Assembly: GCA_963725665.1 (NCBI GenBank)
Contig: CAVRZA010000006.1
Coordinates: forward strand, 256,001-320,000
Length of the DNA: 64,000 nucleotides
Direction of reading: 5' to 3'
Origin: an uncultured Actinomycetes bacterium
GTDB lineage: Bacteria; Actinomycetota; Thermoleophilia; UBA2241
In this document: in pieces, positions 38,062-60,176 of the stretch
Numbering within the stretch: position 1 is the first letter of the stretch
Layout of the letters: each line of letters begins with the position of its first letter
The notes under the pieces: generated by a model
Database searches by the model: none
What the model was told of the DNA's origin: nothing
What the model saw: only the letters and a program-made list of their open reading frames with translations
Translations under genes and position numbers: made by a program

Positions 38062-38910
38062 ATGACGGTCCTCCAGGCGATCATCCTGGGCATCGTGCAG
38101 GGCGTCACGGAGTTCGTGCCCATCTCGAGCTCCGGCCATCTGATCGTCGTCCCCTGGGCCTTCGGGTGGACGTTCTTCCTCGACCACCCCGACCTCAACA
38201 AGACCTTCGACGTGGCCCTCCACCTGGGCACCTTCATCGCCGTACTCGCCTTCTTCTGGCGCGACGTACTGCGCCTTCTGGCCGCCTTCTTCCGCAGCCT
38301 CGCCAGGCGTCGCGCAGAGACGGCCGAGGAGAGGCTCGCCTGGCTTCTCCTCCTCAGCACCATCCCGGCGGGCCTCGTCGGCGTGGCCTTCGAGGGGTTC
38401 ATCGAGGAACGGCTGGGCAAGCCGCTGCTCATCGCCTTCCTCATCATCGGCTTCGGAGTCGTCATGTGGCTGGTCGACATGCGCGCCGCGCAGACTCGTC
38501 ACCTCGACGGGTTGCGCTGGCTCGATGCGCTGCTGATCGGCGTCGCTCAGGCCGTCGCCCTGGCCCCCGGTGTCTCGCGGTCGGGCATCACCATGATCAC
38601 CGCCCGTGCCCTGTCGGTCGACCGCGAGTCCTCGGCGCGTTACTCGTTCCTCATGTCGATCCCCGTGATCGGCGGCGCCGCCCTCTACAAGGCGCTCGAG
38701 GTGGCGCGCGACGGCCTGCCAGCCGGTACGGCGCAGCCCTTCTTCTGGGGCATGGTGAGCGCCGCCATCTCGGGCTTCGCCGCCGTGTGGTTCATGCTCG
38801 CCTACCTGCGCAGCCACGACTTCCGGCCCTTCGCCGTCTACCGCTTCGTCGTCGGTGCGGCGATCATCGTCGTTGTCATAGCTGGGCTGCGACACGCCGG
38901 CGGCATCTAG
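38062..38910 (+). CDS. uppP: Undecaprenyl-diphosphate phosphatase
   Basis: QGVTEFVPISSSGH and PGVSRSG motifs. Confidence 0.95.
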   Translation: MTVLQAIILGIVQGVTEFVPISSSGHLIVVPWAFGWTFFLDHPDLNKTFDVALHLGTFIAVLAFFWRDVLRLLAAFFRSLARRRAETAEERLAWLLLLSTIPAGLVGVAFEGFIEERLGKPLLIAFLIIGFGVVMWLVDMRAAQTRHLDGLRWLDALLIGVAQAVALAPGVSRSGITMITARALSVDRESSARYSFLMSIPVIGGAALYKALEVARDGLPAGTAQPFFWGMVSAAISGFAAVWFMLAYLRSHDFRPFAVYRFVVGAAIIVVVIAGLRHAGGI

Positions 38911-39134
38911 CCGCACGGGGATCCCGCCCGCGACAGTGACACCGCCACGGCCGCCGTCGCGTGCGCGAGCGTGACGGCCGACCGCACCGGAGCCTGCCGC
39001 TGAGAGTCCACCTCCGACCGTCTCACCGGCGCTGCTATTACCCCCCGTAAGGCGACGTAACAAGACCGCTCACCTTCAGGCGAAGCGGGCTTATACTGAC
39101 GGCCTGCGAGCACGCCCGAGGGAAGCTGGTCTTC

Positions 39135-40199
39135 ATGCGCACGCTCAAGCTGGGAGATCGCGGCAAAGAGGTCGCCGACGTGCAGACCCGCCTGCACGGG
39201 CTCGGCTTCGAGCTCGGGGGCGAGGGAGCCGACGGCTATCTCGGGCCCAAGACGGTGGCCGCTCTGAAGGCCTTCCAGCAGCAGCGGCTGCTCCTGGTCG
39301 ACGGCGTGCTGGGAGCGAACACCTGGAGAGAGCTCGTCGAAGCGGGCTACGGCTTGGGCGAACGGCTGCTGTACCTGCGCGTGCCCAACTTCCGCGGCGA
39401 TGACGTGCTGGCGTTGCAGGTCAAGCTCAACCTGCTCGGCTTCAACGCCGGTCCCGAGCGCGGTATCTTCGACGACGAGGTCGAGCACGCGGTCATCGAG
39501 TTCCAGCGCAACGCCGGGCTGCCGCCCGACGGTTCCGTTGGTGAGAACACGTTGCGCACCCTGGACGTGCTGCGCAAGGGCGAGAGGGGCCGTGAGGGCA
39601 AGAAGATCCCCGACCGCGATGAGGGCTACGTCCCCCGGGGCGTCTTGGCCGGCAAGCTCGTGGTGCTCGATGCGGGACACGGCGGGCGGGACGAGGGGGC
39701 GGTCTCGCCCTCAGGGCTCAGGGAGAAGGACATCACACTCGCGCTCGCCCTGAGACTGACAGAGCTCCTGCGGGCCGAGGGCTGCCGGGTAGTGCTGACT
39801 CGCACCACGGACGAGTGGGTGCCGATGTACGACCGCCCCGAGAAGGCCGACGCGGTTGGAGCGGAGTACTTCATCTCCCTGCACGCGAACGCGAACGTCG
39901 CTCCCGAGGCGGCCGGCGCCGCCTGTTACTTCTTCCAGCGCAACCACTACTATTCGGAGAAGGGTGAGCGCCTGGCCGACTACCTGGGCGACCGTCTCTC
40001 GGAGGCCGGCGTGCGCTTCCTGGGCAGCTTCGGACGCAACTACGCCATGCTGCGCGAGCCGCAGGCGATCGCGGTGCTCGTAGAGCCGCTCTTCCTCACC
40101 AACCGCGAGGAGGAGGCGGCCGCTAAGCGCCCAGACGGCATCGAGCGCCTGGCGGTCGCGCTCCTGGCCGGCCTCGAGGGCTACGTAGGCCGCGCCTGA
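39135..40199 (+). CDS. N-acetylmuramoyl-L-alanine amidase with two peptidoglycan-binding domains (CwlM-like architecture)
   Basis: Two PG_binding_1 repeats, then LDAGHGG..E, SLHAN and VEP catalytic motifs. Confidence 0.88.
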   Translation: MRTLKLGDRGKEVADVQTRLHGLGFELGGEGADGYLGPKTVAALKAFQQQRLLLVDGVLGANTWRELVEAGYGLGERLLYLRVPNFRGDDVLALQVKLNLLGFNAGPERGIFDDEVEHAVIEFQRNAGLPPDGSVGENTLRTLDVLRKGERGREGKKIPDRDEGYVPRGVLAGKLVVLDAGHGGRDEGAVSPSGLREKDITLALALRLTELLRAEGCRVVLTRTTDEWVPMYDRPEKADAVGAEYFISLHANANVAPEAAGAACYFFQRNHYYSEKGERLADYLGDRLSEAGVRFLGSFGRNYAMLREPQAIAVLVEPLFLTNREEEAAAKRPDGIERLAVALLAGLEGYVGRA

Positions 40200-40211
40200 G
40201 CCTCCGTCGCT

Positions 40212-41084
40212 GTGAACGACCAGACCGAAGAGCAGGGACGCGGCGTCGGCTTCACCGTCACGCAGGCGCAGCGGCTGCGCGAGCTGGGGGCCGGCGAAGC
40301 GCAGCTTTCGCTGCGCTTCGCCGGCCCGCCCGACCGCGACGCCGCCTTCAAAGCGCTCGAGAACGAGCTCACGCGGGCGGGGCGCCGGCGGCTCGCCGCG
40401 CTGCGCGAGGCGGGGCGCCGGCGCCCCGCCCTGTCGGAGCTCGCAGAGACGCTCGCCGCGCGCGTGCGCGAACTCGGCTTCGTGCAGGTGGTCACACCGG
40501 CGATCATCACGCGCGACGCCCTGCGGCGCATGGGCATCGGCGCCGGGCATCCTCTCGCCGAGCAGGTCTTCTGGCTCGAGGGCGAGCGCTGCTTGAGGCC
40601 CATGCTGGCGCCCAACCTCTACACACTCTGGCGCCGCCTCGCGCGCGTGTGGCCGCTGCCGTTCGGGATCTTTGAGATCGGCTCTTGCTTCCGCATGGAC
40701 ACGAAGGGCAGCACGCATCTGAACGAGTTCACGATGATGAACCTGGCCGAGCTAGGCACGCCGCTCGCGCGCCGTCAGGAGCGCATCCGCGAGCTGGCCC
40801 ACGCCGTGATGCAGGCGGCGGCCGTCGGCGACTACGACCTCGTCGAGAAGGAGTCGGAGGTCTACGGCGACACCCTCGACGTGCTCGCCGGGTCGGCCCG
40901 GCTCGAGGTCTGCTCGGCGGCGATGGGGCCGCACCCACTCGACGAGGCGTGGGGCATCGTCGATCCCTGGGTCGGACTCGGCTTCGGTCTCGAGCGCTTG
41001 CTCCTCGCGCGCGAGGACGAGACCACGATCGAGCGCGTAGGGCGCAGCCTGAGCTACCTCGACGGCGTGCGCCTCAACCTGTAG
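40212..41084 (+). CDS. pylSc: Pyrrolysine--tRNA ligase catalytic subunit PylSc
   Basis: TQAQRLREL start, GFVQVVTP, CLRPMLAPNLY, HLNEFTMMNL.E, VYGDT, PWVGLGFGLERL and RSLSYLDGVRLN closely match bacterial PylSc. Confidence 0.96.
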   Translation: MNDQTEEQGRGVGFTVTQAQRLRELGAGEAQLSLRFAGPPDRDAAFKALENELTRAGRRRLAALREAGRRRPALSELAETLAARVRELGFVQVVTPAIITRDALRRMGIGAGHPLAEQVFWLEGERCLRPMLAPNLYTLWRRLARVWPLPFGIFEIGSCFRMDTKGSTHLNEFTMMNLAELGTPLARRQERIRELAHAVMQAAAVGDYDLVEKESEVYGDTLDVLAGSARLEVCSAAMGPHPLDEAWGIVDPWVGLGFGLERLLLAREDETTIERVGRSLSYLDGVRLNL

Positions 41085-41085
41085 C

Positions 41086-41124
41086 GCGAGCGGGCGGCCC
41101 GCCTGCGGCGGGCCGCCCGCTCGC
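41086..41124. terminator. Bidirectional hairpin between pylSc and the corrinoid gene
   Basis: Perfect 18-bp stem GCGAGCGGGCGGCCCGCC with TGC loop. Confidence 0.7.
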
Positions 41125-41143
41125 CTGTCTCGACGAAGCTTCC

Positions 41144-41788
41144 CTACGCGCCGACGAGCTCCGTAATCTTCTTGACGCCGTCGTTGGCGTCCTCGGCGTA
41201 GGCGTCGGCGCCGATCTGGTCCGCCCACCGCTGCGTTGCCGGGGCTCCACCGACGACGACCTTGTACTTGTCGCGCAAGCCGCGCTCGAGCAGGACCTTG
41301 ATGAGCTTCTTCTGTTCCTCCATGGTGGTGGTGAGAAGCGCGCTCATGCCGATCACGTTTGCGCCGGTCTCCTCGGCCTTGCCGATGAAGGTGTCGATCG
41401 ATGCGTCGCGACCGACGTCGAAGACCTCGTAGCCGTGCGCCTTGAGGTAGGCGATGACGATCGCCTTGCCGATGTCGTGCACGTCGCCCTGCACGGTGCC
41501 GATCACGACCCTGCCCTTGGCCGCACCCGAAGCGCTCCCGAGAGCCTCGTTGCAGATGCGTGTGGCCGCGTCCATGGCCTGGGCGGAGAGCATGAGCTCG
41601 GGAAGGAACATCTCGCCGCTCTCGAACATCTCGCCGACCTCGCTGATGCCGGCGATGAAGCCGTCGTTCATGACCTCGGCGGGCGCCATACCGGCGGCGA
41701 TGGCGTCCTTCGCCACCTGAGCCGCCTTGTCGGCATCGGCGTTGACGATCGCATCGATCGCCTCGCGGACCATCTCGTCCTTCGTCAT
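41144..41788 (-). CDS. Methyltransferase cognate corrinoid protein (MtmC/MttC/MtbC-like)
   Basis: Cap domain (FESGEMFLPEL), GTVQGDVHDIGK B12-binding motif, SALLTTT and VGGAP. Confidence 0.92.
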   Translation of the reverse strand: MTKDEMVREAIDAIVNADADKAAQVAKDAIAAGMAPAEVMNDGFIAGISEVGEMFESGEMFLPELMLSAQAMDAATRICNEALGSASGAAKGRVVIGTVQGDVHDIGKAIVIAYLKAHGYEVFDVGRDASIDTFIGKAEETGANVIGMSALLTTTMEEQKKLIKVLLERGLRDKYKVVVGGAPATQRWADQIGADAYAEDANDGVKKITELVGA

Positions 41789-41995
41789 CCTTCGACTCCT
41801 TCTCGACGTCGACCTCGGTCCCCCTACCGCAGGGCCGGCCGGACGCGCCTGTGACGCGTCGCCGGCGACGATCCTCCCACCGGACGACCAGGCAGGATCT
41901 GCTGCTGGAAGATCCCGCCTAGTATACCGAACGGCTCGCCCCAAGAACGACAGCGGTCGGAGCCCGACTCGAGCCTGTGGTAGAGTCTCCGAGCC

Positions 41996-42874
41996 ATGCG
42001 CTACGTCGGCTCCGTCATCCGCCCCCCCAGCGAAGCATCAAGCCTCATCGTGCAGGTCACCTACGGTTGCTCCAACGCGACCTGCGACTTCTGCGCCACC
42101 TACCTCGACAAGCCCTTCGGCATCCGGCCCTTCGCCGAGATCGCCGCAGACGTCCGCGGTCTGACACCTGGGGTCAAGGAGAGGACGCGGCGCGTCTTCC
42201 TCGCCGACGGCGATGCCGTCGCGCTCTCGCCGCGCCGCCTGCACGAGATCCTCGAGCTGCTGCATGCCGAGCTGCCGCGGCTCGAGCGCGTAAGCTCCTA
42301 CGCCAACGCCCGGAACCTCCTGCGCAAGAGCGTCGGGGAGCTGCGCTCACTGCGCGAGGCTGGGCTGCAGCTCGTCTACCTGGGTCTGGAGTCGGGAGAC
42401 GACGAGACCCTGCGGGCGATCCACAAGGGCGTGACTGTGGCCGAACAGATAGAGGGCTGTCGCAGAGCGACGGAGGCGGGCATAGGGTTATCCATCACCG
42501 CCATCCTCGGGCTCGCCGGCGCCGAGCGCTCACTGATCCACGCACGCGCCACCGGCGAGGCGCTCTCGGCCATCGACCCCGAGTTCATCGGCGTGCTCAC
42601 CCTCATGGTCGTGCGCGGCACGGGCATGGCCTCCCGAGTCGCAAGCGGCGAGTTCGCCGCCCCCGACGTGCTCGGCATGCTGCGCGAGCTACGCGAGATC
42701 GTCGCGTCCACCGAGGTCAGCGACTGCCTCTTCCGCTCGAACCACGCCTCGAACTACCTGCCCGTCGGTGGCCGGCTCCCCGACGACAAGCGGGCCATGC
42801 TCGCCGCCCTCGACGCCGCCCTGGCGACCCCCGAAGCGGCCGCCCTGCGACCCGAGGCTTGGCGGCTGCTCTAG
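41996..42874 (+). CDS. Radical SAM protein (RPPSE family, Cx4Cx2C)
   Basis: IRPPSEA.SLI.QVTYGCSNATCDFC, FLADGDA, GLESG and RSNHASNY motifs; not PylB-like. Confidence 0.85.
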   Translation: MRYVGSVIRPPSEASSLIVQVTYGCSNATCDFCATYLDKPFGIRPFAEIAADVRGLTPGVKERTRRVFLADGDAVALSPRRLHEILELLHAELPRLERVSSYANARNLLRKSVGELRSLREAGLQLVYLGLESGDDETLRAIHKGVTVAEQIEGCRRATEAGIGLSITAILGLAGAERSLIHARATGEALSAIDPEFIGVLTLMVVRGTGMASRVASGEFAAPDVLGMLRELREIVASTEVSDCLFRSNHASNYLPVGGRLPDDKRAMLAALDAALATPEAAALRPEAWRLL

Positions 42875-42889
42875 CAGTCTCCGCGAACG

Positions 42890-43234
42890 CTAGGCGCTGG
42901 AGTCGTCGCGGTCGAGCAGGTGTGAGCCGTACCCGCGGTTGAAGCGGGTGGCGGCGTACTTGCGCTGCTTCCACTCGGGGATGCTGCACTGGGGGCAGGC
43001 GGCGAAGAACCACTTGTTGCGCAGCCAGCGTGCGGCACGGCTGTTCTTAGAGTCGTGGATGACCATGCGCTTGTTGCAGTGCGTCGTGACGTGAGCGTAG
43101 GAGCCGTGCACCTCGAACTCGCGCACGCCGTGCAGTACCCCACGGCGCGAGGGCCAGAGCTTCATCTTCGCGACGAGCCTGAACAGGGGGACTTGCTTTC
43201 GGTAGTAGACGCGCTTGTCGGGGTCTGTGGGCAT
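42890..43234 (-). CDS. pylSn: Pyrrolysine--tRNA ligase tRNA-binding subunit PylSn
   Basis: YYRK, KLWPSR.G.LHG, THC, SRAARWLRNK, CPQC.IPEWK and YGSHL match bacterial PylSn. Confidence 0.95.
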   Translation of the reverse strand: MPTDPDKRVYYRKQVPLFRLVAKMKLWPSRRGVLHGVREFEVHGSYAHVTTHCNKRMVIHDSKNSRAARWLRNKWFFAACPQCSIPEWKQRKYAATRFNRGYGSHLLDRDDSSA

Positions 43235-43433
43235 CGCCTGTCGTCCGCCGGCTGGTAGTGCGTGATCACGCTTGATTCTAGCAGGCGGCACGAGCGGAAG
43301 GCAGGGACCGGTTCGGCGGTCAAACGGCTGCGAGATCGGATCCGGCCATCACCTCACATCGCGGCGATCGCCGGCCGAAGAGGAGCTACCCGGGACCCCG
43401 CGAACTGGTGAGCGGGCGGATTGGAGGTCGACG

Positions 43434-44339
43434 ATGAAGAGAGTCCACTGGTTGATCGTGACCGCGGCGATGATCATGGCGGTCGGGCTGGTCGCCGGCT
43501 GCGGCGGCTCATCGCCAGGCGCCACGCCGAGCGGCGCCGAGACGACGAGCGCCCCGGCGACGAGCGAGCCGCCGCAGACGACCAGCCCGACCACGACCGC
43601 CACGCAATCCCCCTCCCCCTCGTCCACTAGGACGCTGACGGTGGCGCTCTACTTCCTGCGCGGCGAGTATGTGGGAGTGGCGCACCGCACGATCCCGCAC
43701 ACGCTGGCCACCGGCAGCGCGGCGATGAAGCTGCTCGTCGCGGGACCGAACGCCGCCGAGAAGTCGGCCGGCCTGGGAACGACGATCCCCGCCGGGACCG
43801 AGTTCCTGGGACTCGTCGTCAAGAACGGCATCGCCACCGTCGATCTGTCGAGCACCTTCGCCAGCGGCGGCGGCAGCTTGTCGATGTTCACGCGGCTGGC
43901 TGAGGTCGTCTACACGCTCACCCAGTTCCCGTCTGTGAAGGGAGTCAACTTCAAGCTCGACGGCGAGAAGGTGACCGTCTTCAGCGCCGAGGGGATCGCC
44001 CTCGACCACCCGCAGACGCGCGCCGACTACGAGGAGCAGACCCCGGCGATCCTCGTCGAGAACCCGGCCGTCGGTGACACGGTCTCGAGTCCCATGCGCC
44101 TCAGCGGGACGGCCAACGTGTTCGAGGCGGTCTTCCAGATGAAGCTCGTCGACGCCAACGGCAAGATCCTCGCCAAGGGCATGGTCCAGGCGACCTCGGG
44201 GACCGGCACCAGGGGCACCTTCTCGACGCCCGTGCTCTTCGCCCCCACCACGCCGACTGGCAAGCTGATCGTCTACGAGGTCTCGATGAAGGACGGTTCG
44301 GCCATGAACGTGGTGAGGATCCCGCTGGCGTTCAAGTAA
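43434..44339 (+). CDS. GerMN plus Gmad2 (Ig-like) domain lipoprotein
   Basis: Lipobox VAGC, Thr/Ser/Pro linker, VVYTLTQFPSV (GerMN) and GTANVFEA (Gmad2). Confidence 0.85.
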   Translation: MKRVHWLIVTAAMIMAVGLVAGCGGSSPGATPSGAETTSAPATSEPPQTTSPTTTATQSPSPSSTRTLTVALYFLRGEYVGVAHRTIPHTLATGSAAMKLLVAGPNAAEKSAGLGTTIPAGTEFLGLVVKNGIATVDLSSTFASGGGSLSMFTRLAEVVYTLTQFPSVKGVNFKLDGEKVTVFSAEGIALDHPQTRADYEEQTPAILVENPAVGDTVSSPMRLSGTANVFEAVFQMKLVDANGKILAKGMVQATSGTGTRGTFSTPVLFAPTTPTGKLIVYEVSMKDGSAMNVVRIPLAFK

Positions 44340-44363
44340 GACGAGGAACGCCCGCGGCAACGC

Positions 44364-44400
44364 GCGAGGGCCCCGGGAGCGACGCTCCCGGGGCCTTCGC
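44364..44400. terminator. Bidirectional hairpin
   Basis: GCGAGGGCCCCGGGAGC / GCTCCCGGGGCCTTCGC stem between convergent genes. Confidence 0.6.
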
Positions 44401-44430
44401 TCACCCGCCCTGGACCCGGCGCTCGCCCCC

Positions 44431-45625
44431 TCAGGCGCTCTTCACCTTCGTCCAGCACTGCGTGTAGTAGTCCATGAACGCACCGACGTCGTTCACGACC
44501 TCGCCGTACGAGAGCTGAGCCCCGGTCGGGTAGGCCTTGATCAGGATCTTGCTCTTCACGTGCTCGTAGGCCTTGGGCACGGGTGAGAGATACCACACGT
44601 AGTCAACCAGGTCGGCAGCATTCTTCGGCTCGAAAAGGAAGTTCATCAACAGGTGGGCGCCGTAGGGGCTGTTCGCCCCCTTCGGGATGCAGAGGTTGTC
44701 GATCCAGATGGTGTAGCGGGGCTTCGGCATGACGAAGGCCAGCTTGTCGAAGCCGATCTGGTCCTGCACGATGAGCGTGTCGGCGTTGAAGGCGTGCACC
44801 AGCGCGACGCCCTGTGTCATGTAGCGCTTCATGCTGTTGGTGTCGTAGGCGTTCACCAGGGGCTTCTGCTTGATCAGCTTCTTGGTCGCCGCATCGAGCT
44901 GCGCCGTGTCGGTCGAGTTCAATGAGTAGCCGAGGACAGCCAGCCCGGCACCCATCGTCTCGCGCATCTCGTTGTCCATGTTGATCTGGCCCTTCCAGGC
45001 CGGGTCCCACATGATCGTCCAGTCGGTCACAGGCTGCTTCACCTTGTCGAGGCGCACGCCGATGCCGGTCGTGCCCCACTGGTAGGGCACGCTGTACTTG
45101 AGGCCGCCGTTTTCCGTCTTGTTGTCGTACACCGGGTCCTGCAGCTTGGCTTCCACGTTCGAGAAGTTGGGGATGTAGCTCATGTTCAAGGGCTCAAGGA
45201 GGCCTGTCTTGATCATGATGTGAACCATGTAGTCAGACGGGCAGATGAGGTCGTAGCCCACCGCACCCGCCTTGAGCTTGGAGAGCAGCGCCTCGTTGTC
45301 GTCGAAGTAGGTCTCGACCAGCGTGATGCCCGTCTCCTTCTTGAAGTTCTTCACGGTCGCGGGAGCCAGATAGTCGGACCAGTTGAAGAAGTTGAGCTTG
45401 GTCGGCACCGTGGTGTCCATCGCCGACGGCGACGTGGGCGTGCTCGACGTCGACGAGGACCCGCAGGCGGAGAGCACTGCAGCCACCCCCGTGACCGAAA
45501 GGCCCATGACCAGGGCTCGCTCGATGAACGTATGCCTGGCTGATGCGCCCGTGCTTGACCTCGTCGATCAGCCCCGTGAGGTCCTTCCCACTGCAGACGT
45601 TCGCGGGCTCGGTCGAATCAGCCAT
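44431..45625 (-). CDS. PotD/PotF-like substrate-binding lipoprotein, frameshift at ~45540 in the signal region
   Basis: FNWSDY, FDDNE, GYDLICPSDYM and PYQWGTTGI motifs; removing one C restores HGRISRHTFIERAL...LSAC. Confidence 0.85.
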
Positions 45626-45893
45626 ATCCCCCACTCCCCCTCACAGGTCCCTTCGCCAGGCTCGCTCGCCGCCCCGAACATACTACACAACAGAGACCGG
45701 CGCGGGGGCACCCGCGGACGAGGTGTGACAGCGCGCAGGCAGGTGCCCGCCCTGCTTGTCGCTTCGGGCACTAGGCGGAGTTGCGACCGACCCACTTCTC
45801 GCAGTTGGCGCGGCAGATCGTCACGAGAACGGCCTCATTCTTGGCGTTGGAGCACGAATACCGTACTCTCGTCTACGTCAGGAAGGAGGACGG

Positions 45894-46358
45894 ATGGCTC
45901 GCGCGCCGCTCGACGACACCGACCGACGCATCATCATGCATCTTCAAGAGGATGGCAGACGGCCCTATACGACCATCGCCGCCGATCTGGGCCTTTCTGA
46001 GGCCAGCATCCGCCAGCGTGTTGCCCGGCTGGTGCAGCGCAAGGTGATCCAGATCGTGGCCGCCAGCAACCCCCTGGATCTCGGCCTGCAGAAAGCCGAG
46101 CTGGGAATAGCGGTGATCGACGCCTCACCCACACGGCTCGCGGAGGAGATCGCAGCCTTCCCTGAGGTCGACTTCGTCGCCATCTGCGCCGGCTCGTTCG
46201 ACCTTATCGTCGGGGTCATCTTCCGCGACCGTGAGGAGCTGTTCGAGGTCCTGGTCAACAAGGTACGCGGCCTGTCCGGCGTCGCGCGCGTCGACGTCTT
46301 CCTCCATCTCAGAGTCGTGAAGGACACCTACGAATGGCCACCTGCCGCCGTGTCCTGA
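45894..46358 (+). CDS. Lrp/AsnC family transcriptional regulator
   Basis: LDDTDRRII..LQEDGRRPY..IA..LGLSE HTH and AGSFDL ligand domain. Confidence 0.92.
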   Translation: MARAPLDDTDRRIIMHLQEDGRRPYTTIAADLGLSEASIRQRVARLVQRKVIQIVAASNPLDLGLQKAELGIAVIDASPTRLAEEIAAFPEVDFVAICAGSFDLIVGVIFRDREELFEVLVNKVRGLSGVARVDVFLHLRVVKDTYEWPPAAVS

Positions 46359-46653
46359 TGCGAGGACGGCGGCAGAAGCGTTAGACCACTGGTCATTCAA
46401 GACCCATCCTTATCGTCGCCCTATCCTGGCGAGCGACACGAATAGTGATGTCTTGCCTGGCCACCATACACGAATATCGTGTCGTTCTGCTGTTGACACT
46501 CCCGCTGCTTCGGAACAGAGTTCAGGCCGAGGGGCGGATGTCATTTGCGCTCCCGCGAGAAGCGCGACCGTGGCACACCGAACCGCGTCCGTAAGCGGTG
46601 AGGACAGCAGACTGGCGAGCTTCGCGAGTGCCTGGATCATGGAGGAGGGTGGG

Positions 46654-48435
46654 GTGCACTTCTACACAGGCAACGTGCTCAGGATCGATCTCAGCGCAGG
46701 CATCAGCAGGGTGGAGCCGCTCAAGATGGAGTACGCGCGGCTCTATATCGGCGGCAAGGGCCTCCTGCTCCGCTACATGTGGGACGAGGTCGAGCCGGGG
46801 CTCGACCCCTGGTCGCCCGAGAACCCTCTCTACCTTGTGACCGGCCCCTTCGCCGGGACGAACGTGACCACGTCGTCACGACTCGTAGTGGGCTGTAAGA
46901 GTCCGAAGACCGGCCTCTTCAACGACAGCTACGTCGGCGGCTCCTTTGCCCCTGAGATGAAGTTTGCCGGCTACGACATGATCGTCGTCACGGGAAAGGC
47001 ACCAGAACCCATCCTCGTCACCGTTCGCGACGACGTGGTGGAGTTTCAGACGGCAGGACAGTACTGGGGCATGAAGACATCCGAGATCGAGGAAGCGGTG
47101 CGGCGCGACTTCGACGCGGACGCGAAGGTGCTGTCGATCGGACCGGCGGGCGAGAACCTGATCACCTATTCGTGCATCTCGACCGACCAGTACCACAAGG
47201 CTGGCCGGGCCGGGCCGGGCGCAGTGATGGGGGCCAAGAACCTGAAGGCGATCGCGATCCGAGGCACGGGCAGGGTCACCGTGGGCAACGCGCGTGCCTT
47301 CCTGGAAGACATCCGGCGCATCCACAAGGAGTACATCCTCACCGACGACAACTTGTGGGCCCACGAGGAAGGCACCCCGATCCTCGTCGACATCATCAAT
47401 GGCGGCGGCGCTCTCCCCACCCGCCACTACTCGACGGGATCGTTCGAGGGCGCTACGAAGCTCAACTCTGAGTCGTTCCAGAAGATCCGCGTCAAAAAGC
47501 GCGCCTGCTACCAGTGCGCCATCGCGTGTCGCAACTTTCACGCCGTGCCGGGCGCGCGTGGTGAGGGCCCCGAGTACGAGACCATCGCGCTAGGCGGTGC
47601 GAACTGCGGCATCGATGACATCGGGGCCCTGATGAAGTTCAACGCCGACTGCGACGAGTACGGGCTCGACACGATCTCGACCGGGGCGTGCATCGCCTTG
47701 GCCATGGAGATGACCGAGAAGGGCATCCACGACTTCAGCCTGCGCTTCGGCGAGGTCGACGGCTATGTGAAGGCGGTGCCCCTAATAGCGAAGCGCACGG
47801 GTATCGGTGTCGACCTCTCCCTCGGCGAACGGGCCCTCGCGACGAAGTACGGCCATCCGGAGCTGGCGATGGAGGTCAAGGACCTGGAGTTGCCGGGCTA
47901 CGATCCGCGAGGCGCCTTCGGCATGAGCGTGACATACGCCACCTCCGACCGGGGCGGCTGTCACATGCGATCTTTCCCGGTGGGCCAGGAGATCGTCGCC
48001 GGCACGCTGCCCGCCGACACACTCGAGGGGAAGGCAGACTGGATCATCCGCTCCGGCACCGGGGGACAGGACTTCTTCGCCCTCAAGTTCAGCGGCATCT
48101 GGTGTGACTTCTGGGCCATCGACGTCAATCAGATCTCGCAACTCATGAAGCACGTCTGGGAGCGCGAGGTGAGCGAGGACGAGCTCATGCGCACCGGCGA
48201 GCGCATCTGGAACCTGGGCCGTCTCTTCAACCTGCGCGAAGGGGTGGACGACGACGACCTGCCGGAGCGCATCTTGAGTGAGCCTCACCCCTCGGGCGCG
48301 GCCGCCGGACGCGTGATCGGACGCGAGGCATTCGCAGCTGCCCTGCAGGAGTACTACAGCCTGCGCGGGTGGGACGAGAAGGGCGTGCCGGGCGAGGCCA
48401 AGCTGGCCGCGCTCGGCGTCGACGTCCGCCTCTAG
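46654..48435 (+). CDS. Aldehyde:ferredoxin oxidoreductase family (W/Mo-pterin)
   Basis: IGGKG, KSPKTG, SIGPAGEN, GR.G.GAVMGAKNLKA, CYQCAIAC, GPEYET, GLDTIS and RGGCH motifs. Confidence 0.95.
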   Translation: MHFYTGNVLRIDLSAGISRVEPLKMEYARLYIGGKGLLLRYMWDEVEPGLDPWSPENPLYLVTGPFAGTNVTTSSRLVVGCKSPKTGLFNDSYVGGSFAPEMKFAGYDMIVVTGKAPEPILVTVRDDVVEFQTAGQYWGMKTSEIEEAVRRDFDADAKVLSIGPAGENLITYSCISTDQYHKAGRAGPGAVMGAKNLKAIAIRGTGRVTVGNARAFLEDIRRIHKEYILTDDNLWAHEEGTPILVDIINGGGALPTRHYSTGSFEGATKLNSESFQKIRVKKRACYQCAIACRNFHAVPGARGEGPEYETIALGGANCGIDDIGALMKFNADCDEYGLDTISTGACIALAMEMTEKGIHDFSLRFGEVDGYVKAVPLIAKRTGIGVDLSLGERALATKYGHPELAMEVKDLELPGYDPRGAFGMSVTYATSDRGGCHMRSFPVGQEIVAGTLPADTLEGKADWIIRSGTGGQDFFALKFSGIWCDFWAIDVNQISQLMKHVWEREVSEDELMRTGERIWNLGRLFNLREGVDDDDLPERILSEPHPSGAAAGRVIGREAFAAALQEYYSLRGWDEKGVPGEAKLAALGVDVRL

Positions 48436-48464
48436 GCCCGGCTCGCGAGGGAAAGGGAGAACCA

Positions 48465-48914
48465 ATGCCGCATGTGTTGATCTCGAAGAAGAAGTGCACC
48501 GGCTGCCACATGTGCGAGCTCGCCTGCTCGGCCTGGCACGAGGGTGTCTATCAGCCGTCGCTGGCCCGCCTCAACGTGATCGTCAATCCGACGACGGGCG
48601 TGATCAAGGGCCAGACCTGCGTGCAGACGGCCTGTCATAAGTGCCAGGACGTCTGCCCGCACGAGGCCATCTTCACCAGGGGCGGCGTGCTCTACGTCGA
48701 CGAGGCCAAGTGCAACGCCTGCGCCGACATCGCCGAGGGGCCGCAGTGCGTGCCCGTCTGTCCCTGGGACGTGATGCATATCCACCCGCAGAGCAACAAG
48801 GCCTTCAAGTGCGACCTCTGCGACGGCGATCCGCAGTGCGTCGCCTTCTGCCAGAACCCACACGTGCTGGCCGTCACGCAGAAGGCCGACAAGGCCGACG
48901 CGGCAGCCGTCTGA
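48465..48914 (+). CDS. 4Fe-4S dicluster electron-transfer subunit
   Basis: CTGCHMCELAC, CxxxxCxxCxxxCP, CNAC...C...CP and CDLCDGDPQCVAFC motifs. Confidence 0.9.
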   Translation: MPHVLISKKKCTGCHMCELACSAWHEGVYQPSLARLNVIVNPTTGVIKGQTCVQTACHKCQDVCPHEAIFTRGGVLYVDEAKCNACADIAEGPQCVPVCPWDVMHIHPQSNKAFKCDLCDGDPQCVAFCQNPHVLAVTQKADKADAAAV

Positions 48915-48973
48915 CGGTCGACCGCAGACGCAGATCCAGGAGCACGAAGGAAGAGACCCCCGAAAGGACGACC

Positions 48974-50209
48974 ATGAAGGTACTCGTAGTTGGAGCGGGA
49001 GCCCAAGGCCACGTAGTCACGTGGAACCTGGCGCGGTGTCCGGAGATCAGCGAGATCGTGCTCGGCGACATCGACGAGGCGCGCGCCCGGGCGGTCGCCG
49101 ATCAGGTCGGCGGCGGCAAGACGAGGGCAGTCGCACTCGACGCGTCGAGCGTCGAGGCGGTGAAGAAGGCCGCCGCGGGTGCCAAGCTCGTTATGAACGC
49201 GACCATCCCCGAGTTCAACATGGCGATCCTAGAAGCCTGTCTGGCAGTCGGTGTCGACTACCAGGACATGGCGACCGGTACCCTCGTCGATAAGACCATC
49301 GACGAGGCGACCCTCATGCAGATGGAGCTCGACGAGGACTTCAGGAGGGCCGGCCTTACGATGTTGACGTGCACGGGCATGGACCCCGGTGTCTCGAGCA
49401 CCTTCGCCGGCAACTGCTATGAGGACCTCGACGTCTGCACCGACATCCACATCAGGGACTACGCCGTGCTCGAGAGCCCCGTGGCGCTGCAGATGTGGTC
49501 GGTGTGGACCTACTACACCGACTGCGCCACGCCGCCCCTCACGTTTCAGGACGGCAACTACGTGCGGGCAGAGCCGTTCGGGCTGCGCGAGTTCTACCAG
49601 TTCCCCGAGCCGTTCGGGCGTGGTTGCGTCGTCGCCCACGACCACGAGGAACTGTCGACGATACCGCGCTTCCTGCCCAAGCACTTCGGCGACAAGGGGC
49701 TGAGGAACGTCACCTTCAAGCTCGGTTTCGACGAGGCCGCACTCAATGCCGACGAGGCGTTCGTGGCCAGCGGGATGGCCAGCAAAGAGCCCGTCGTGGT
49801 CAACGGTGTCGAGGTGAGGCCGATCGATGTCTATTGCGCCACGCTGAAGCCCAATCCCTCTCCTGAAGAGATGAGGCGGCTCGTCGAGGCTGGCGAGATC
49901 AAGGACTACGGAATCATCCTGGTCGACGCCTGGGGCCAAAAGGACGGCAAGCCGGCAAAGTGGAACTACAGCGTCTTCACGCCGACCATCCAGTGGATCA
50001 CCGAGCGCATCCCCGGCGCGACGTCGGTGTCGTACGGCACATCGACACCCGCGGCCGTCTACTCGGAGTTCCTCGTGAAGGACATGATCACGCAGAAGGG
50101 ATGCGTCGTGCCGGAGGTCCTGGAGCGGCCGGTACGCGACGCCTTCATCAAGGAGCTGGGCGACCGCGGCTTGCGCGTGACGCGCAGCTTCGAGACGGAG
50201 ATCAACTAA
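48974..50209 (+). CDS. Saccharopine dehydrogenase-like oxidoreductase (carboxynorspermidine synthase/lysine dehydrogenase family)
   Basis: VLVVGAGAQG Rossmann fold, GMDPG, HEE and G...PE motifs. Confidence 0.82.
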   Translation: MKVLVVGAGAQGHVVTWNLARCPEISEIVLGDIDEARARAVADQVGGGKTRAVALDASSVEAVKKAAAGAKLVMNATIPEFNMAILEACLAVGVDYQDMATGTLVDKTIDEATLMQMELDEDFRRAGLTMLTCTGMDPGVSSTFAGNCYEDLDVCTDIHIRDYAVLESPVALQMWSVWTYYTDCATPPLTFQDGNYVRAEPFGLREFYQFPEPFGRGCVVAHDHEELSTIPRFLPKHFGDKGLRNVTFKLGFDEAALNADEAFVASGMASKEPVVVNGVEVRPIDVYCATLKPNPSPEEMRRLVEAGEIKDYGIILVDAWGQKDGKPAKWNYSVFTPTIQWITERIPGATSVSYGTSTPAAVYSEFLVKDMITQKGCVVPEVLERPVRDAFIKELGDRGLRVTRSFETEIN

Positions 50210-50336
50210 CCCCGCCCACGTGGGCCGAGGCGCTTCGTCGCCGGCTACGAGTCCAAGAAGAAGAAGCGAGGCGGGGACGGCCCATATGGGCCGCCCCCGC
50301 TCACGTCGTCACCCGTGGATGCTTGGGGTCACAACC

Positions 50337-51930
50337 CTACTGCACGTCGACGAAGATCGGGTTCGAGTAGAACCACAGGTCGGCCCACGCCTTGGCGGCG
50401 GTGTTCGTGCCCATCCTCATGTCGAGGCGCGGGTTGCCGGCGGCGGTGGTCTGGTTCTTGACGTCCAGGCCGAGGTTCGTGCCACGCAGACGGAAGTACA
50501 TGTCGCTGGTCACATTGTCGGCGGTCGTGGTGATGACGTTGAAGCCCTCGCCGTCGACGGTCCAGTCGGCGGACGTGAAGCGTTGCACCACGTGCGTCGA
50601 CGGGTTGGTCTTGTTGCTCTTGAACTCGGGGCTCGACGGGTCGATCAGGCCCGTCACGTTGCCGGCGATGAGGTCGACGTGATCGACGACCGGCACAGTC
50701 ACCGTGGTAGTTGGTCGCCGGGCTCTTGAAACGGATGGTGATCGTCACGGTCGAACCCGAGCTGACGGCGAGCGTGCCGCCCATCTCGGCCGGCTCACTC
50801 CCCGACGCGGCGGTGAAGTCGAGCTCGTTGATGAGTCCACCCATGGCCGAGAAGGACTTGCCGGCGCGCAGGCCATCGACGATGCCCTGCTGGGTGAACT
50901 CGGCCACCCAGGTGTGGTCCTGGTTGTACTCGCCGGGCCAGAACTCCTCTTCGGGGTTGTGGAAGTCGGAGTCGGCGAAGATCCAGAAGTGGCGGCCTTC
51001 GCCGAGCAGCGCATCCCACACGCCGCCGATCTTGGCTGTGTAGAGGTCCGCCCCGCCGTAGGTGCGCGCCGTGTTGGTGACCGCCCAGCTCACCTTCTTC
51101 ATCTCGGCAGGGCTGTCCTCGTCGAGCGCGCGCCCGTTCTTGTCGAAGAACGAGTCGTAGCCGCCGCGGAACGGCTCCTTCTGGGAGCCGGGGACGCCGG
51201 CCATGCCGAAGCAGACCGTGGGCGCCGCGTTGTTGAAGGTGCGGATCGCTGCGACCGGCCAGCGCAGGTCACGCGAGGGGTGGCTGATGACGCTGTAGGC
51301 GCTGTCGGGGTAGGTGTCTTTGAGAAAGGTCGCACCCGCGACGTACCCCGTCGGGCCTTGGTTCTGCTTGGTCACGCCGAGTACCGCGCGTGAGATGTCG
51401 GGCTCTGGAAGTCGAACTTGTAGATGAAGTCGCTGAGCGAGATCGGCATGTCCTCGATGATCGCCGTCTTGGCCTCAGCGTCCTCCTCACCCTTCGTCAC
51501 GGGGACGCCCCACTCGACGCCCTCGATGATGATCTTGCCGGGGTAGCTCGGCCTGAGCTGCTCAAGGAGCGGCCACTCCAGATCCTTGAGGCTCAGCCAG
51601 ACGTCCATCGACACCTTCACGGGATCCCAATCGACGTTCATGCCCGCGCAGGCGCTTGCCCAGCGGATCGAACGTGGACGGCGCGCCGTGGTCTGCCGTC
51701 CCGATCCAGTCGAGGCCGAACTGCGAGAGGGCGTGCTCCAAAACGGCGGCCTCGGTCTCTTCGCCATCGCTCAGCCAGGTGTGGTTGTGCATGTCGCCGG
51801 CTACCCACTGCCCCGGAAGGGGGGCGGCGCCGGCGGTCCCGCCTTTGACAAGAACGGCGCCGGCCACGACGGCCAGGCCGACGGCAACGATCACCGCCAC
51901 GGCAACGACGGTCTTTCGTGACGAGAACAT
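50337..51930 (-). CDS. Secreted PHP-like metallo-hydrolase, three apparent frameshifts
   Basis: Signal peptide, GDMHNHTWLSDG, ADH, EW, SHP, DSDFH, FWPGEY and WFYSNPIFV spread over four ORFs. Confidence 0.65.
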
Positions 51931-52088
51931 GGTGCCCCTTTCTCGCGGGATGCATGACGGATGAGAAGCCCCTCATTGGGGATGTGCAGTCCCCGAGCTT
52001 CACCGATCGGTAGCGCGGAACCCCTCACCTCCTCCCCCACGAGACGACGCGCGTACCCCGCTCAGGCTTCGCTGCCATCTCGAGTGCC

Positions 52089-52193
52089 GATTGTAGACTG
52101 TCAACTGGGTGTCTGTCGAGGGTCCGACCGAGGACTCGGGCACGGAGACGTTGCCCACTCGCAGCGCTCCTGATAGATTGTCGACTGTCGACT
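52089..52193. promoter_or_regulatory. Two operator-like boxes in a divergent promoter region
   Basis: GATTGTAGACTGTCAACT (52089-52106) and GATTGTCGACTGTCGACT (52176-52193), 16/18 identical. Confidence 0.55.
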
Positions 52194-52262
52194 TAGCGAG
52201 GCCCAGGCGGCGCACGATCGGCGGCGCCGCGGCCGGACCAACGGCTACGAGGAGTCCTCCCC

Positions 52263-53699
52263 ATGACGACTGATGCTGCTCCCCAACCCCGCACTCTCAC
52301 CCCGCGTGTCCGGACCAAGCTGCCCGGTCCCAGGAGCCGAGAGCTGCTGGCCGTGAAGGACAGGGTCTTCTGCGGCCCCTTGCGCGAGGGCGTCGACGTC
52401 CCTTTCGTCATGGCGCGCAAGTCTGACTGGATCATCGAGGACGTCGACGGCAACACGTACGCGGACCACGTCTCGGCTTGGGGCTCCACTCCGCTTGGGG
52501 CCAAGCCTGAGGTCGTCCTCACTGCCACGGCAGAAGCCATGCAGCGCTACGGTATGGAGATCACCGACTACGTGATGAGCGAGCCGCCGCTGGCGCTCGC
52601 CGAACGCCTGCTCGACATCGCGCCGCCCGGGATCGCGCGCGTCGGGCCGAGCATCAGCGGTACGGAGGCCGTCGAGGCCGGCGTGAAGCTCGCCCGCGAA
52701 GCGACAGGCCGCCCCATGATTCTCGGCTTCCACGGTCAGTATCACGGAGAGTCGACCTATCTGACGGCGGCCGCCAGCACCGACCTCTCCGAGGTGAGCA
52801 GCAACAACGCGCAATACGTATCGGGCTTCGTGTTCACTCCGTACCCCAACCGGTTCCGCGCTCCCTTCCATCGTGGGCCCGGACCCTATGACGACACGAT
52901 GTACGTGGATTTCATCGAGGAATGGCTCCTCGTCCACCAGGTTGACCCTGAGCAGATCGCCGGCGTCCTCATCGAGCCAGTGCTCGGCGAGGGAGGCATC
53001 CTCATCCCCTCTCAGGCATTCTGGGACCGGCTGACGGGCCTCTGTCGACGCTTCGGATGGAAGCTGGTCCTCGACGAGGTGCAGACCTGTCTGGGGCGCT
53101 GTGGGACCATGTTCGCCGCCGAGATCTGGGGCCTCGAGCCTGACGTCGTCCTCATGGGCAAGGCCATCGCCGGCGGAGGTCAGCCGATCGCCGCCGTGCT
53201 GGGCACCGAAGAGGTCATGAGCGAGACCGACGTGCAGCCGGGTGGCACCTTCGCGTGGACGCCGGCAGCCTGCGCCGGGGCCTTGGCGAGCATCGACGCG
53301 ATCGTTCGCGATCAGGCCTTGGAGAACGCCCAACGGCTCGAGCAGATCGCTCGCGAGACGCTCGAGCCGCTCGTCGAGCGGTTCGAGCAGGTGGGCGACG
53401 TGCGCGCCATCGGCGCGTGGGTCGGCGTGGAGTTCGTGACAGACAAGGAGAGCATCAGGCCCGCGCCGGCCTTCCACAGCGCCGTGCACCAGGCCCTGGT
53501 GCGACGCGGCGTCCTCGGCATCACCCAGTGGGGCAAATGGGTCTACCGGATGCAGCCGGCGATCAACATGCCGGCGGAGCTCTTCCGCTGGTCGTGTCTG
53601 CAGGTGGCCGATGCCGTCGACGAAGTGTCGAAGGCCCCCCCGCGGGAACCGGGACTGCTCGACCGCTACGTCGGCGGCGAGCGGCGGCGCACCGGCTAG
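52263..53699 (+). CDS. Class III aminotransferase (GABA/putrescine transaminase-like)
   Basis: DVDGN.Y.D, SGTEAVE, YHG, EPVLGEGG, DEVQT and GKAIAGG motifs. Confidence 0.9.
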   Translation: MTTDAAPQPRTLTPRVRTKLPGPRSRELLAVKDRVFCGPLREGVDVPFVMARKSDWIIEDVDGNTYADHVSAWGSTPLGAKPEVVLTATAEAMQRYGMEITDYVMSEPPLALAERLLDIAPPGIARVGPSISGTEAVEAGVKLAREATGRPMILGFHGQYHGESTYLTAAASTDLSEVSSNNAQYVSGFVFTPYPNRFRAPFHRGPGPYDDTMYVDFIEEWLLVHQVDPEQIAGVLIEPVLGEGGILIPSQAFWDRLTGLCRRFGWKLVLDEVQTCLGRCGTMFAAEIWGLEPDVVLMGKAIAGGGQPIAAVLGTEEVMSETDVQPGGTFAWTPAACAGALASIDAIVRDQALENAQRLEQIARETLEPLVERFEQVGDVRAIGAWVGVEFVTDKESIRPAPAFHSAVHQALVRRGVLGITQWGKWVYRMQPAINMPAELFRWSCLQVADAVDEVSKAPPREPGLLDRYVGGERRRTG

Positions 53700-53791
53700 G
53701 CCACCCCGCGATGCGCCTCGCCGGACGCCTCGCGGGCGGCTCACGGCGAAGGCCAGACCCCGCCCATGATAGCCCGGGATCAAAATGGACC

Positions 53792-53830
53792 GAGCCGCGG
53801 CGGGGCGCCTGCGGCGCCCCGCCGCGGCTC
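53792..53830. terminator. Bidirectional hairpin
   Basis: Perfect 18-bp stem GAGCCGCGGCGGGGCGCC with TGC loop. Confidence 0.6.
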
Positions 53831-53859
53831 TCGTCACTCACCGTAAGCGGTGCTGCCTG

Positions 53860-55935: not shown

Positions 55936-55956
55936 GGCTACCTCCCGAGTAGGGTT

Positions 55957-56010
55957 GGTCGGGCGGGGCCGTCGCGAGCGGCGCGCCGCTCGCGACGGCC
56001 CCGCCCGACC
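55957..56010. repeat. Perfect 54-bp spacerless palindrome
   Basis: GGTCGGGCGGGGCCGTCGCGAGCGGCG followed by its exact reverse complement. Confidence 0.85.
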
Positions 56011-56043
56011 GTCACCCTATCTCCGCGCCACGTCGTCGTCAAC

Positions 56044-56061
56044 GATAGACTGTCGACAATC
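56044..56061 (-). promoter_or_regulatory. Operator-like box
   Basis: Minus strand reads GATTGTCGACAGTCTATC, similar to the 52089/52176 boxes; upstream of the M28 gene. Confidence 0.5.
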
Positions 56062-56131
56062 GTTTTGAGCAGCTCGGCGCCACAGGATCATCAGCCGGGA
56101 CAGGCCCGCCGACCCCTCTCGAGGTCCCACC

Positions 56132-57175: not shown

Positions 57176-57293
57176 CCTTCGCTCCTCGGTCGAGACCGGC
57201 TCGGGGGCCGAATCACCTCACATCCGGCGCCTCCTGAATGCTCTCGGGTATGATGTCGTCAGTCAACAGTCAACTGGCATGAGGAGTCGGTCG

Positions 57294-58055
57294 ATGGCAA
57301 GGTTCACGGACAAGGTGGCGCTGATCACGGGCGGCACGCGGGGCATTGGGTATGCGACCGCCGCACTCTTCGCCCGAGAGGGCGCGGGAGTAGTCATCTG
57401 CGGCCGTGATGAAAGGCGCCTGACAACGGCCACGGCGGAGCTCGAGACACAGGGCGGGCCTGTAGCCGGCGTCCGTTGCGACGTCGGTTCCGAGCAGGAC
57501 GTCGAGCGACTCTTCTCGGAAGTCCTGGACCTCTTTGGAGGCCTCGACGTTTGCGTCTGCAACGCCGGAATCGAGACGGACGAAGAGTTCACGATCTTCG
57601 ACCTGCCGCCGGCGGTCTTCGACGAGAACATGCGGACCAACGTGCGCGGCGTCTACCTGACATCCCAGGGCGCGGCGAGGACGATGAAGGGCACCGGAGG
57701 CGCCATCGTCATCGTCGGTTCGTCGAGCGGCATCATCGCCGATGTCACCGCCCCCTCTCCCACGTACGATGCGACCAAGGCCGCCGTGCACATGTTCGCG
57801 AAGGCCCTCGCCCTCGAGCTGGCGCCGTACGGCATCAGGGTGAACGCGGTCGCCCCAGGCTGGATCGAGACCGACATGACGGCCGTCGAGGCGGACGACC
57901 CCGAAGTGGTCGCAAGCTGGCTCGAGCGCATCCCGCTCCGCCGTCTAGGGCAGCCCGATGAGGTCGCCGAGGTCATCGCCTTCCTGGCGAGCGAGCGGGC
58001 TTCGTACATGACGGGCTCGGTTGTCACCGTCGACGGCGGCGAGACCGTCATCTGA
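57294..58055 (+). CDS. SDR oxidoreductase
   Basis: TGGTRGIG, NAG, YDATK (YxxxK) and PG.I.T motifs. Confidence 0.9.
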   Translation: MARFTDKVALITGGTRGIGYATAALFAREGAGVVICGRDERRLTTATAELETQGGPVAGVRCDVGSEQDVERLFSEVLDLFGGLDVCVCNAGIETDEEFTIFDLPPAVFDENMRTNVRGVYLTSQGAARTMKGTGGAIVIVGSSSGIIADVTAPSPTYDATKAAVHMFAKALALELAPYGIRVNAVAPGWIETDMTAVEADDPEVVASWLERIPLRRLGQPDEVAEVIAFLASERASYMTGSVVTVDGGETVI

Positions 58056-58057
58056 AG

Positions 58058-58112: not shown

Positions 58113-58145
58113 TACAGCATGACCCACGTCGGGGACTCTGTCGTT

Positions 58146-60134: not shown

Positions 60135-60176
60135 GAGCGCTGCGACCCATCGGCGCGGACGGAGCCCATCAACGTA

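Follow-up and report, generated by a model that had tools for sequence, protein, structure and literature searches.

The window analyzed here is a 64-kb stretch of contig C6 (C6:256001-320000; positions without a prefix are those of the window) from a 3.73-Mb, 12-contig genome of 68% G+C, rated 97.5% complete, and it carries at 40212-43234 both genes of a split pyrrolysyl-tRNA synthetase (PylRS). We conclude with high confidence that this locus provides the tRNA-charging half of a canonical and complete bacterial pyrrolysine (Pyl) system, in a layout typical of one Thermoleophilia-type family. All parts of the system are present, intact and inherited with the family. Protein families were called by profile scores against curated NCBIfam cut-offs, tRNAs with ARAGORN and RNA families with Rfam.

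The catalytic (large) subunit, 290 aa, is encoded by pylSc (40212-41084, + strand) and scores 314.4 bits on TIGR02367 (PylS_Cterm) against a cut-off of 178.15. Its closest solved relative is the PylSc of Desulfitobacterium hafniense (3DSQ/2ZNI, E 5e-100), aligned over residues 14-290. More than 1800 relatives are present in the protein collection, the nearest 79% identical and most 60-67%, and NCBI names some of them pyrrolysine--tRNA(Pyl) ligase large subunit, from metagenome-assembled genomes (MAGs) of Actinobacteria/Thermoleophilia. The tRNA-binding (small) subunit gene pylSn (42890-43234, - strand) encodes 114 aa from its probable ATG start at 43234, with the open frame extending upstream to a GTG at 43291. 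Its product scores 119.2 bits on TIGR03912 (PylS_Nterm; cut-off 51.15), and residues 31-113 align with the N-terminal domain of the PylRS from Methanosarcina mazei (5UD5, E 1.1e-10). Between the two lie the gene of an MtbC-like corrinoid protein (41144-41788, - strand; TIGR02370, PF02310, PF02607), 214 aa from the probable ATG at 41788 in a frame open up to a TTG at 41944, and that of a stand-alone radical SAM protein (rSAM; 41996-42874, + strand; 292 aa, PF04055 alone). The initial annotation, made from the sequence of the window, had recognized a clear PylSc and PylSn and the order pylSc> <corrinoid rSAM> <pylSn; both subunits are indeed above the curated cut-offs, and the four genes were found at these coordinates and on these strands.

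The window contains no tRNA according to ARAGORN, and none of the genome's matches to pylB, pylC, pylD, MttB, MtbB or MtmB falls inside C6:256001-320000, which agrees with the earlier reading that a CUA tRNA, pylBCD and a methylamine methyltransferase are absent from it. pylT and pylBCD are on the same contig. The sole tRNA-Pyl(CUA) of the genome is encoded by pylT at C6:343702-343774 (- strand); it is 73 nt long and has the 6-bp anticodon stem and small D arm typical of tRNA-Pyl. Contiguous with it, immediately upstream in the same orientation and without internal stops, are pylD (C6:343844-344635; TIGR03911, 211.6 bits, cut-off 150.05), pylC (C6:344775-345908; TIGR03909, 338.7 bits, cut-off 248.3) and pylB (C6:345979-347001; TIGR03910, 448.3 bits, cut-off 348.2), all on the - strand. 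In window numbering the pylT-pylB group would occupy 87702-91001, past the window end; pylT is 44.4 kb away from pylSn, and 23.7 kb separate it from that end. Every pyl gene, pylSc included, is single copy in the genome.

Substrate genes are also present. Fifteen methylamine methyltransferase genes (6 mttB, 8 mtbB and 1 mtmB) carry one in-frame TAG, corresponding to 6/31 matches to the MTTB family, 8/9 to Dimeth_Pyl and 1/6 to MtmB, where a gene was counted if it had one in-frame TAG inside the family match, irrespective of its position relative to the known Pyl site. In a crude set of 2279 long open reading frames (ORFs) with high G+C at third codon positions, TAG is the stop codon in 38%, TGA in 56% and TAA in 6%, so that avoidance of TAG is not seen; genome-wide reassignment of TAG to Pyl was therefore excluded. 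A pylT/pylBCD/mttB set elsewhere in the genome had been named in advance as the outcome that would speak against the initial annotation, and the full set was found. Its proposal of a Pyl-decoding system is borne out by the PylS halves, tRNA-Pyl(CUA), pylBCD and the 15 TAG-bearing methyltransferase genes. Its suggestion that the biosynthetic genes had been moved or lost is half right: pylT-pylDCB are displaced by 44 kb, and all of them are intact.

From what is known of these families, PylB, PylC and PylD would make pyrrolysine from two lysines, PylSn would bind tRNA-Pyl, and PylSc would activate pyrrolysine with ATP and load it onto tRNA-Pyl(CUA). The charged tRNA would decode the single in-frame UAG of mttB, mtbB and mtmB, the products of which would move a methyl group from tri-, di- and monomethylamine, respectively, to corrinoid proteins like the one in the window. 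The stop codon of an N-acetylmuramoyl-L-alanine amidase gene is 12 bp upstream of the pylSc start; because of this gap, and of similarly short gaps in relatives, the two genes are likely co-transcribed. Such co-transcription may lead to constitutive synthesis of PylSc, in which case control of UAG read-through would rest with pylT-pylBCD or with substrate supply.

The gene order of the window is that of its relatives. A scan of species-representative genomes returned 585 loci with a PylSc relative, and the best 80 of these were used for counting after mapping the window genome's own proteins and tRNA-Pyl onto them. The amidase gene is directly upstream of pylSc in 59 of the 80 loci (58 by script; two matches overlap in L042), and almost all 59 come from records with Thermoleophilia, Actinomycetota or Actinomycetes in the title. 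Downstream genes were counted in the 31 amidase-type loci with at least 9 kb beyond pylSc: the corrinoid gene on the - strand was found in 28/31, the rSAM gene on the + strand in 27/31, pylSn(-) in 29/31 and all three in 26/31, followed by gerM(+) in 22/31, tRNA-Pyl(-) in 24/31, pylD(-) in 24/31, pylC(-) in 25/31 and pylB(-) in 22/31. In most relatives gerM immediately precedes pylT-pylDCB, usually with tRNA-Pyl(-) as the next feature. The family layout is thus uppP, amidase, pylSc> <corrinoid rSAM> <pylSn gerM> <pylT-pylD-pylC-pylB, spanning 8-10 kb. In the relatives pylT is found 93-3200 bp past pylSn, compared with 44.4 kb in the window genome. Compact loci of the window's family (L036, L038, L043, L046, L053, L066) have identical genes, order and strands from uppP to gerM, with 59-67% identity to the window in PylSc, 69-76% in rSAM and 67-80% in PylSn. 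What had been described as a dispersed system is therefore the family's normal layout, apart from a gap of about 43 kb. Six of the 31 loci (L045, L063, L065, L068, L075, L080) are split like the window genome, with pylC out of reach.

In the window, the conserved flanks are uppP/bacA for undecaprenyl-diphosphatase (38062-38910, + strand; PF02673, 275.6 bits), which keeps this upstream position in most amidase-type relatives, the amidase gene with two PG_binding_1 repeats (39135-40199, + strand; PF01520, 140 bits; PF01471) and a GerM/Gmad2 lipoprotein gene (43272-44339, + strand; PF10646, PF10648). The earlier description of the locus as embedded in core genes fits these housekeeping neighbors. 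Two of the syntenic loci, L056 and L110, bear the titles “Deltaproteobacteria bacterium” and “candidate division Zixibacteria”; they show the full Thermoleophilia-type gene order, and their PylSc sequences nest within the Thermoleophilia-type clan. Mistaken binning or labelling of these two records is the probable cause.

The remaining 21 of the 80 loci (Desulfosporosinus, Sporomusa, Dehalococcoidales and others) have the textbook one-strand order; pylT-pylSc-pylBCD-pylSn is seen in Desulfosporosinus and Sporomusa. The window system resembles the D. hafniense type (3DSQ, 2ZNI/2ZNJ) in having separate genes for PylSn and PylSc and in the presence of pylT, pylB, pylC, pylD and a corrinoid gene nearby. 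The arrangement differs, however. In Bacillota-type loci all genes are on one strand and pylT is just upstream of pylSc in 15/21, whereas in the window genome pylSc and pylSn point toward each other with two genes in between, a cell-wall amidase gene precedes pylSc, and pylT comes after pylD on the strand opposite to pylSc. PylRS of Methanosarcina (5UD5, 2Q7E) has the same domain content, and its catalytic domain matches PylSc with E 1e-51; in these archaea it is one fused polypeptide, while the window genome encodes it by two genes.

Use of pyrrolysine in Actinobacteria is already known, and the locus adds a canonical example. PylRS genes are reported in two Actinobacteria among 81 bacterial genomes (PMC9630628), and expression of Pyl-encoding mttB and mtbB is reported for Actinobacteriota MAGs of a mire on thawing permafrost, with the genus RBG-16-64-13 named among the most active methylotrophs (PMC10805028). 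The taxonomic novelty claimed for the locus is consequently small. In a literature search that covered few subscription journals, neither this gene order nor the embedded rSAM was found described.

To see how far the system has spread, we used 300 genomes drawn evenly from the same class, with PylSc called at E <= 1e-30. PylSc is present in 51/55 genomes of the window's family (f1), in 9/55 genomes of a second family (f4) and in 0/190 genomes of the other ten families. The f4 loci (G010, G100, G168, G178, G193, G248, G253) share with the window the class, a split PylS and a related rSAM (67-71% identity), which is 2.4-23 kb from pylSc in 6/7 genomes having both. Their organization is different: all seven have a one-strand operon, pylT-pylSn-pylSc-pylB-pylC(-pylD), and their PylSc is only 48-52% identical to that of the window. 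Corrinoid genes were detected by tblastn in 6/7 f4 loci; three of the four annotated ones have a URO-D (MT2-type) gene at their flank, and two have a TAG-split mttB there. In a quick maximum-likelihood tree of 88 PylSc sequences, unrooted and without an outgroup, the f1-type rows group in one clan (SH-aLRT 100) and the f4 rows in another (100), and the f1-type clan adjoins three rows (two titled Dehalococcoidales, one other bacterium; 95) and not f4. These results suggest separate acquisition of the two Thermoleophilia pyl locus types. Two unlike architectures in one class, with PylSc about 50% identical, bear on the spread of the trait among bacteria, and the distinct f1-type order is common to dozens of Thermoleophilia-type genomes from soil, peat and digesters.

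Four f4 genomes, G100, G168, G193 and G253 (L132, L136, L134 and L135), have pylT, pylSn, pylSc, pylB and pylC. PylD above the TIGR03911 cut-off is absent genome-wide in these four and present in one of the five genomes searched (G178); completeness is put at 100% for G100 and at 99% for G168. The place expected for pylD, immediately after pylC, is taken in G253 by an rSAM with a fused DUF8230-like domain.

The corrinoid protein scores 223 bits on TIGR02370, a narrow margin over the cut-off of 215.3, and 224.6 bits on NF041607 (MtbC equivalog), under the cut-off of 350. The D-x-H-x-x-G motif (D102, H104, G107) is invariant in 20 orthologues. Its nearest paralogues (58-59% identity) are encoded on contig C3, where an mtbB gene and mtmB immediately precede them, and both Bacillota-type and f4-type loci also place corrinoid genes beside pyl genes. 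The protein probably serves methylamine methyl transfer.

Stand-alone proteins of roughly 290 aa make up the family of the rSAM, which is large (491 clusters at E <= 1e-30 in a 50%-identity library) and has a conserved head RPPSEA...GCSxNxCxFC with the cluster motif Cx4Cx2C. The rSAM reaches no NCBIfam cut-off, and the protein atlas around it contains only “Radical SAM protein” clusters. The initial annotation had called it a radical SAM protein other than PylB, rightly so, as it stays below TIGR03910: it is absent from the genome's four PylB matches, and PylB is absent from its own 15 NCBIfam matches (E <= 0.01). A PylB-like or PylD-replacing role was rejected here, pylB and pylD both being present. 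Among 53 family members there are weak matches to HpnJ (52/53), PhpK (43/53), MJ_0865 (42/53) and TIGR04014 (42/53); these cover the core halves of B12-binding rSAM families and are far under cut-off. The Pfam scan detected no fused N-terminal cobalamin-binding domain in the 292 aa, and the protein was not classed as a class B (B12-binding) enzyme, since it consists of the rSAM core without a B12 domain. The AlphaFold2 model (pLDDT 97) has its top PDB matches in MgmA, Elp3, AprD4, PylB and MiaB, with TM 0.5-0.64. The nearest solved structure is MgmA (methyl-coenzyme M reductase glutamine C-methyltransferase, a B12-binding rSAM; 9CCB), which has a similar core fold (Foldseek E 7.8e-11, TM 0.63 normalised to the query) at 16% identity and, unlike the window protein, has a B12-binding domain. 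Elp3, AprD4, PylB and MiaB score nearly as well as MgmA, and therefore no function can be transferred to the rSAM.

Could the divergent corrinoid and rSAM genes form a functional module for pyrrolysine or methylamine metabolism, for example a cobalamin-dependent rSAM enzyme of two components, in which the rSAM core would borrow the corrinoid protein? They are transcribed divergently from a 207-bp intergenic region and occur together in 26/31 compact relatives, identity among relatives is higher for the rSAM (69-76%) than for PylSc (58-67%), the HpnJ and MgmA matches of the rSAM are to B12-binding rSAM enzymes while it has no B12 domain of its own, and a related rSAM is found near pylSc in f4 as described above. 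The distribution of the rSAM speaks against such a module. Within f4 it occurs in 38/55 genomes, including 31/46 that have no PylSc; five f4 genomes with a 66-68%-identical rSAM were checked and none has PylSc over the cut-off. None of 14 rSAM loci from PylSc-less genomes has a corrinoid or pyl gene within 6 kb; among eight annotated loci of this kind the rSAM gene follows rpoA-rplQ-truA in three, and the others place it by molybdopterin oxidoreductases or unrelated genes. Conversely, six f1 genomes carry PylSc without the rSAM. L037 has the corrinoid gene without the rSAM gene and L041 the rSAM gene without the corrinoid gene, and Bacillota loci pair corrinoid with pyl genes in the absence of such an rSAM. 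A complex prediction for the rSAM and the corrinoid protein, run without controls, gave a score of 0.00, which speaks neither for nor against the module. We consider a functional module of the two genes improbable, and its specific form, in which the B12-domain-less, class-B-like rSAM and the MtbC-like corrinoid protein make up a two-component enzyme serving the pyrrolysine/methylamine system, slightly more so; if real, such an enzyme might modify tRNA-Pyl, a methyltransferase or a cofactor. The rSAM would rather be a resident neighbor of the canonical system, not PylB-like, not pyrrolysine-specific and not required for Pyl decoding, perhaps with a less direct functional link to the metabolism of methylamines or corrinoids.

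The block of about 43 kb that separates gerM, its near edge, from pylT-pylDCB runs to C6:343701, and its first 19.6 kb (44431-64000) are in the window. According to Pfam scans, the part inside the window encodes solute-binding proteins, an AsnC regulator, an aldehyde:ferredoxin oxidoreductase, a saccharopine dehydrogenase, an aminotransferase, an M28 peptidase, a short-chain dehydrogenase/reductase and a thioredoxin. The whole block also has ABC transporter parts, GrdB, a glycine-reductase component, an amine oxidase, an ornithine/diaminopimelate decarboxylase, LarA and an ornithine cyclodeaminase. No transposase or integrase domain was detected among the 33 ORFs scanned in it. A copy of the 3' half of pylT is found at C6:342469-342501 (L129:2469-2501), 1.2 kb 3' of the intact gene; it comprises 33 nt at 97% identity, with likeness reaching about 45 nt, and the DNA between the two contains no convincing ORF. 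This partial copy looks like the scar of an element once integrated at tRNA-Pyl. That the block itself is such an element was not established, the copy being 1.2 kb from pylT and not at the gerM edge.

The same block could be taken as the sign of a decaying relic, in which the pylS genes went out of use after the interruption. The separation of pylS from pylT-pylDCB would fit, and the partial pylT copy points to a past rearrangement, yet all seven genes have intact frames and scores over cut-off, the 15 TAG-containing methyltransferase genes are retained, and 6/31 relatives are split in the same way; we regard decay as very unlikely. As observations on the block, aldehyde:ferredoxin oxidoreductase genes are found near both of its edges (46453-48435 and L129:8615-10408, the second just past pylB), each near a gene for a polyamine-type solute-binding protein, and genes for a GrdB-like protein and glycine-reductase component B are inside the block just beyond the window end.

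Motif 2 of class II synthetases has the form f-R-x-E/D. It reads CFRMDT in the window PylSc versus CYRKES in D. hafniense PylSc (3DSQ), and R161 and D163 are invariant across 18 clade members. Motif 2 was read in 49 amidase-type loci (FRRD in 47, FRKD in 1 and FRAD in 1; ten of the 59 had no match to the search pattern and were dropped) and in 21 other loci (YRKE in 14, FRKD in 5 and FRKE in 2), setting the F-R-x-D of the window clade against a Y-R-K-E majority in Bacillota-type loci. The variable position is Met in the window, Leu in its nearest relative and Arg in 47/49 amidase-type loci. The Tyr-to-Phe and Glu-to-Asp changes are lineage features and only the Met is local, and FRMD is within the class II norm, with the catalytic Arg retained. 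The NLY, NEFTMxNL, VYGD and PWVGLGFGLERLL stretches of PylSc are conserved relative to 3DSQ, an alignment that keeps the motif-2 Arg, APNLYT, NEFTMxNL, VYGDT and DPWVGLGFGLERLL. These stretches would include the residues that contact the substrate. The initial annotation had judged the pocket residues intact, in line with this alignment; it had also read FRMD correctly, and this variant is no sign of altered chemistry, F-R-x-D being clade-wide.

The least likely alternative is that the pylS genes work without a biosynthetic pathway, in a pyrrolysine scavenger or as a PylRS for a different lysine derivative, both proposed in the initial annotation: a 64-kb window without pylT, pylBCD or a methyltransferase and a motif 2 unlike that of D. 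hafniense seemed to favor it, but the contig carries intact pylB, pylC, pylD and pylT at a distance of 44 kb, 15 genes have an in-frame TAG, FRKD also occurs in 5/21 non-actinobacterial loci, and the pocket stretches are conserved, and with the pylT/pylBCD/methyltransferase set found elsewhere in the genome both ideas are therefore left without support. This removes a false lead, as there is no pyrrolysine scavenger and no naturally retargeted PylRS here.

Several points weigh against a canonical system with an unrelated rSAM beside it. In this organism, enzyme activity, Pyl insertion and amidase-pylSc co-transcription are all deduced from genome data. With TAG at 38% of stops, unregulated UAG suppression would affect many genes, and with 15 Pyl genes beside such stop usage the control of read-through matters. 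No methyltransferase gene adjoins the corrinoid gene in this genome. The rSAM and PylSc are on one contig in 36 of the 53 sampled genomes having both, with at most 2.7 kb between them in 30 of these 36 (the count used the 60 top rSAM rows; of the 27 lower rows left out, none comes from a PylSc-bearing genome except a second copy in G253). The rSAM is also near pyl genes in the second, differently organized locus type, and its linkage to pyl genes exceeds what a mere passenger needs. Finally, the classification of the host comes from synteny and from the record titles of its relatives and not from a marker-gene placement.

The host is an uncultured soil or peat actinobacterium of Thermoleophilia type, and four related loci derive from MAGs titled palsa_, bog_ or fen_. 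The genome has genes for carbon monoxide dehydrogenase/acetyl-CoA synthase (CODH/ACS), aldehyde:ferredoxin oxidoreductases and GrdB, and these anaerobic traits, together with the titles of the 59 syntenic loci, agree with the anaerobic actinobacterial host proposed earlier. The high-GC PylRS/tRNA-Pyl pairs of this clade could serve genetic-code expansion.

Rfam reported no family in the whole window at the gathering score and none in 40900-43600 at E <= 1, and accordingly no riboswitch or other RNA family between the divergent corrinoid and rSAM genes. A scan of 38900-44500 gave no promoter-like and two terminator-like sites versus 1.4 expected, which is uninformative at 68% G+C. A search of sequencing runs with 39135-44339 returned no RNA run among the matches, and DNA runs at a small share only.

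In four f4 loci without PylSc (L114, L118, L120, L125), the rSAM gene follows rpsD-rpoA-rplQ-truA or is near rplM, and a gene for an AhtL-like molybdopterin oxidoreductase often adjoins it. The gap between truA and rplM may be an insertion hot spot in the Thermoleophilia class. In Pyl-positive f4 loci the rSAM gene is followed by a gene for a 360-aa DUF8230-like protein, the two being fused in G253; the DUF8230 placement comes from protein atlas features only, where the nearest clusters carry DUF8230 and some have enolase-superfamily domains. The window genome itself has a DUF8230-like gene and a 35%-identical rSAM paralogue side by side at C2:415369-417473 (L130), next to CODH/ACS genes; relative to this pair, the pairing that adjoins the pyl island in three f4 genomes is reversed or fused.

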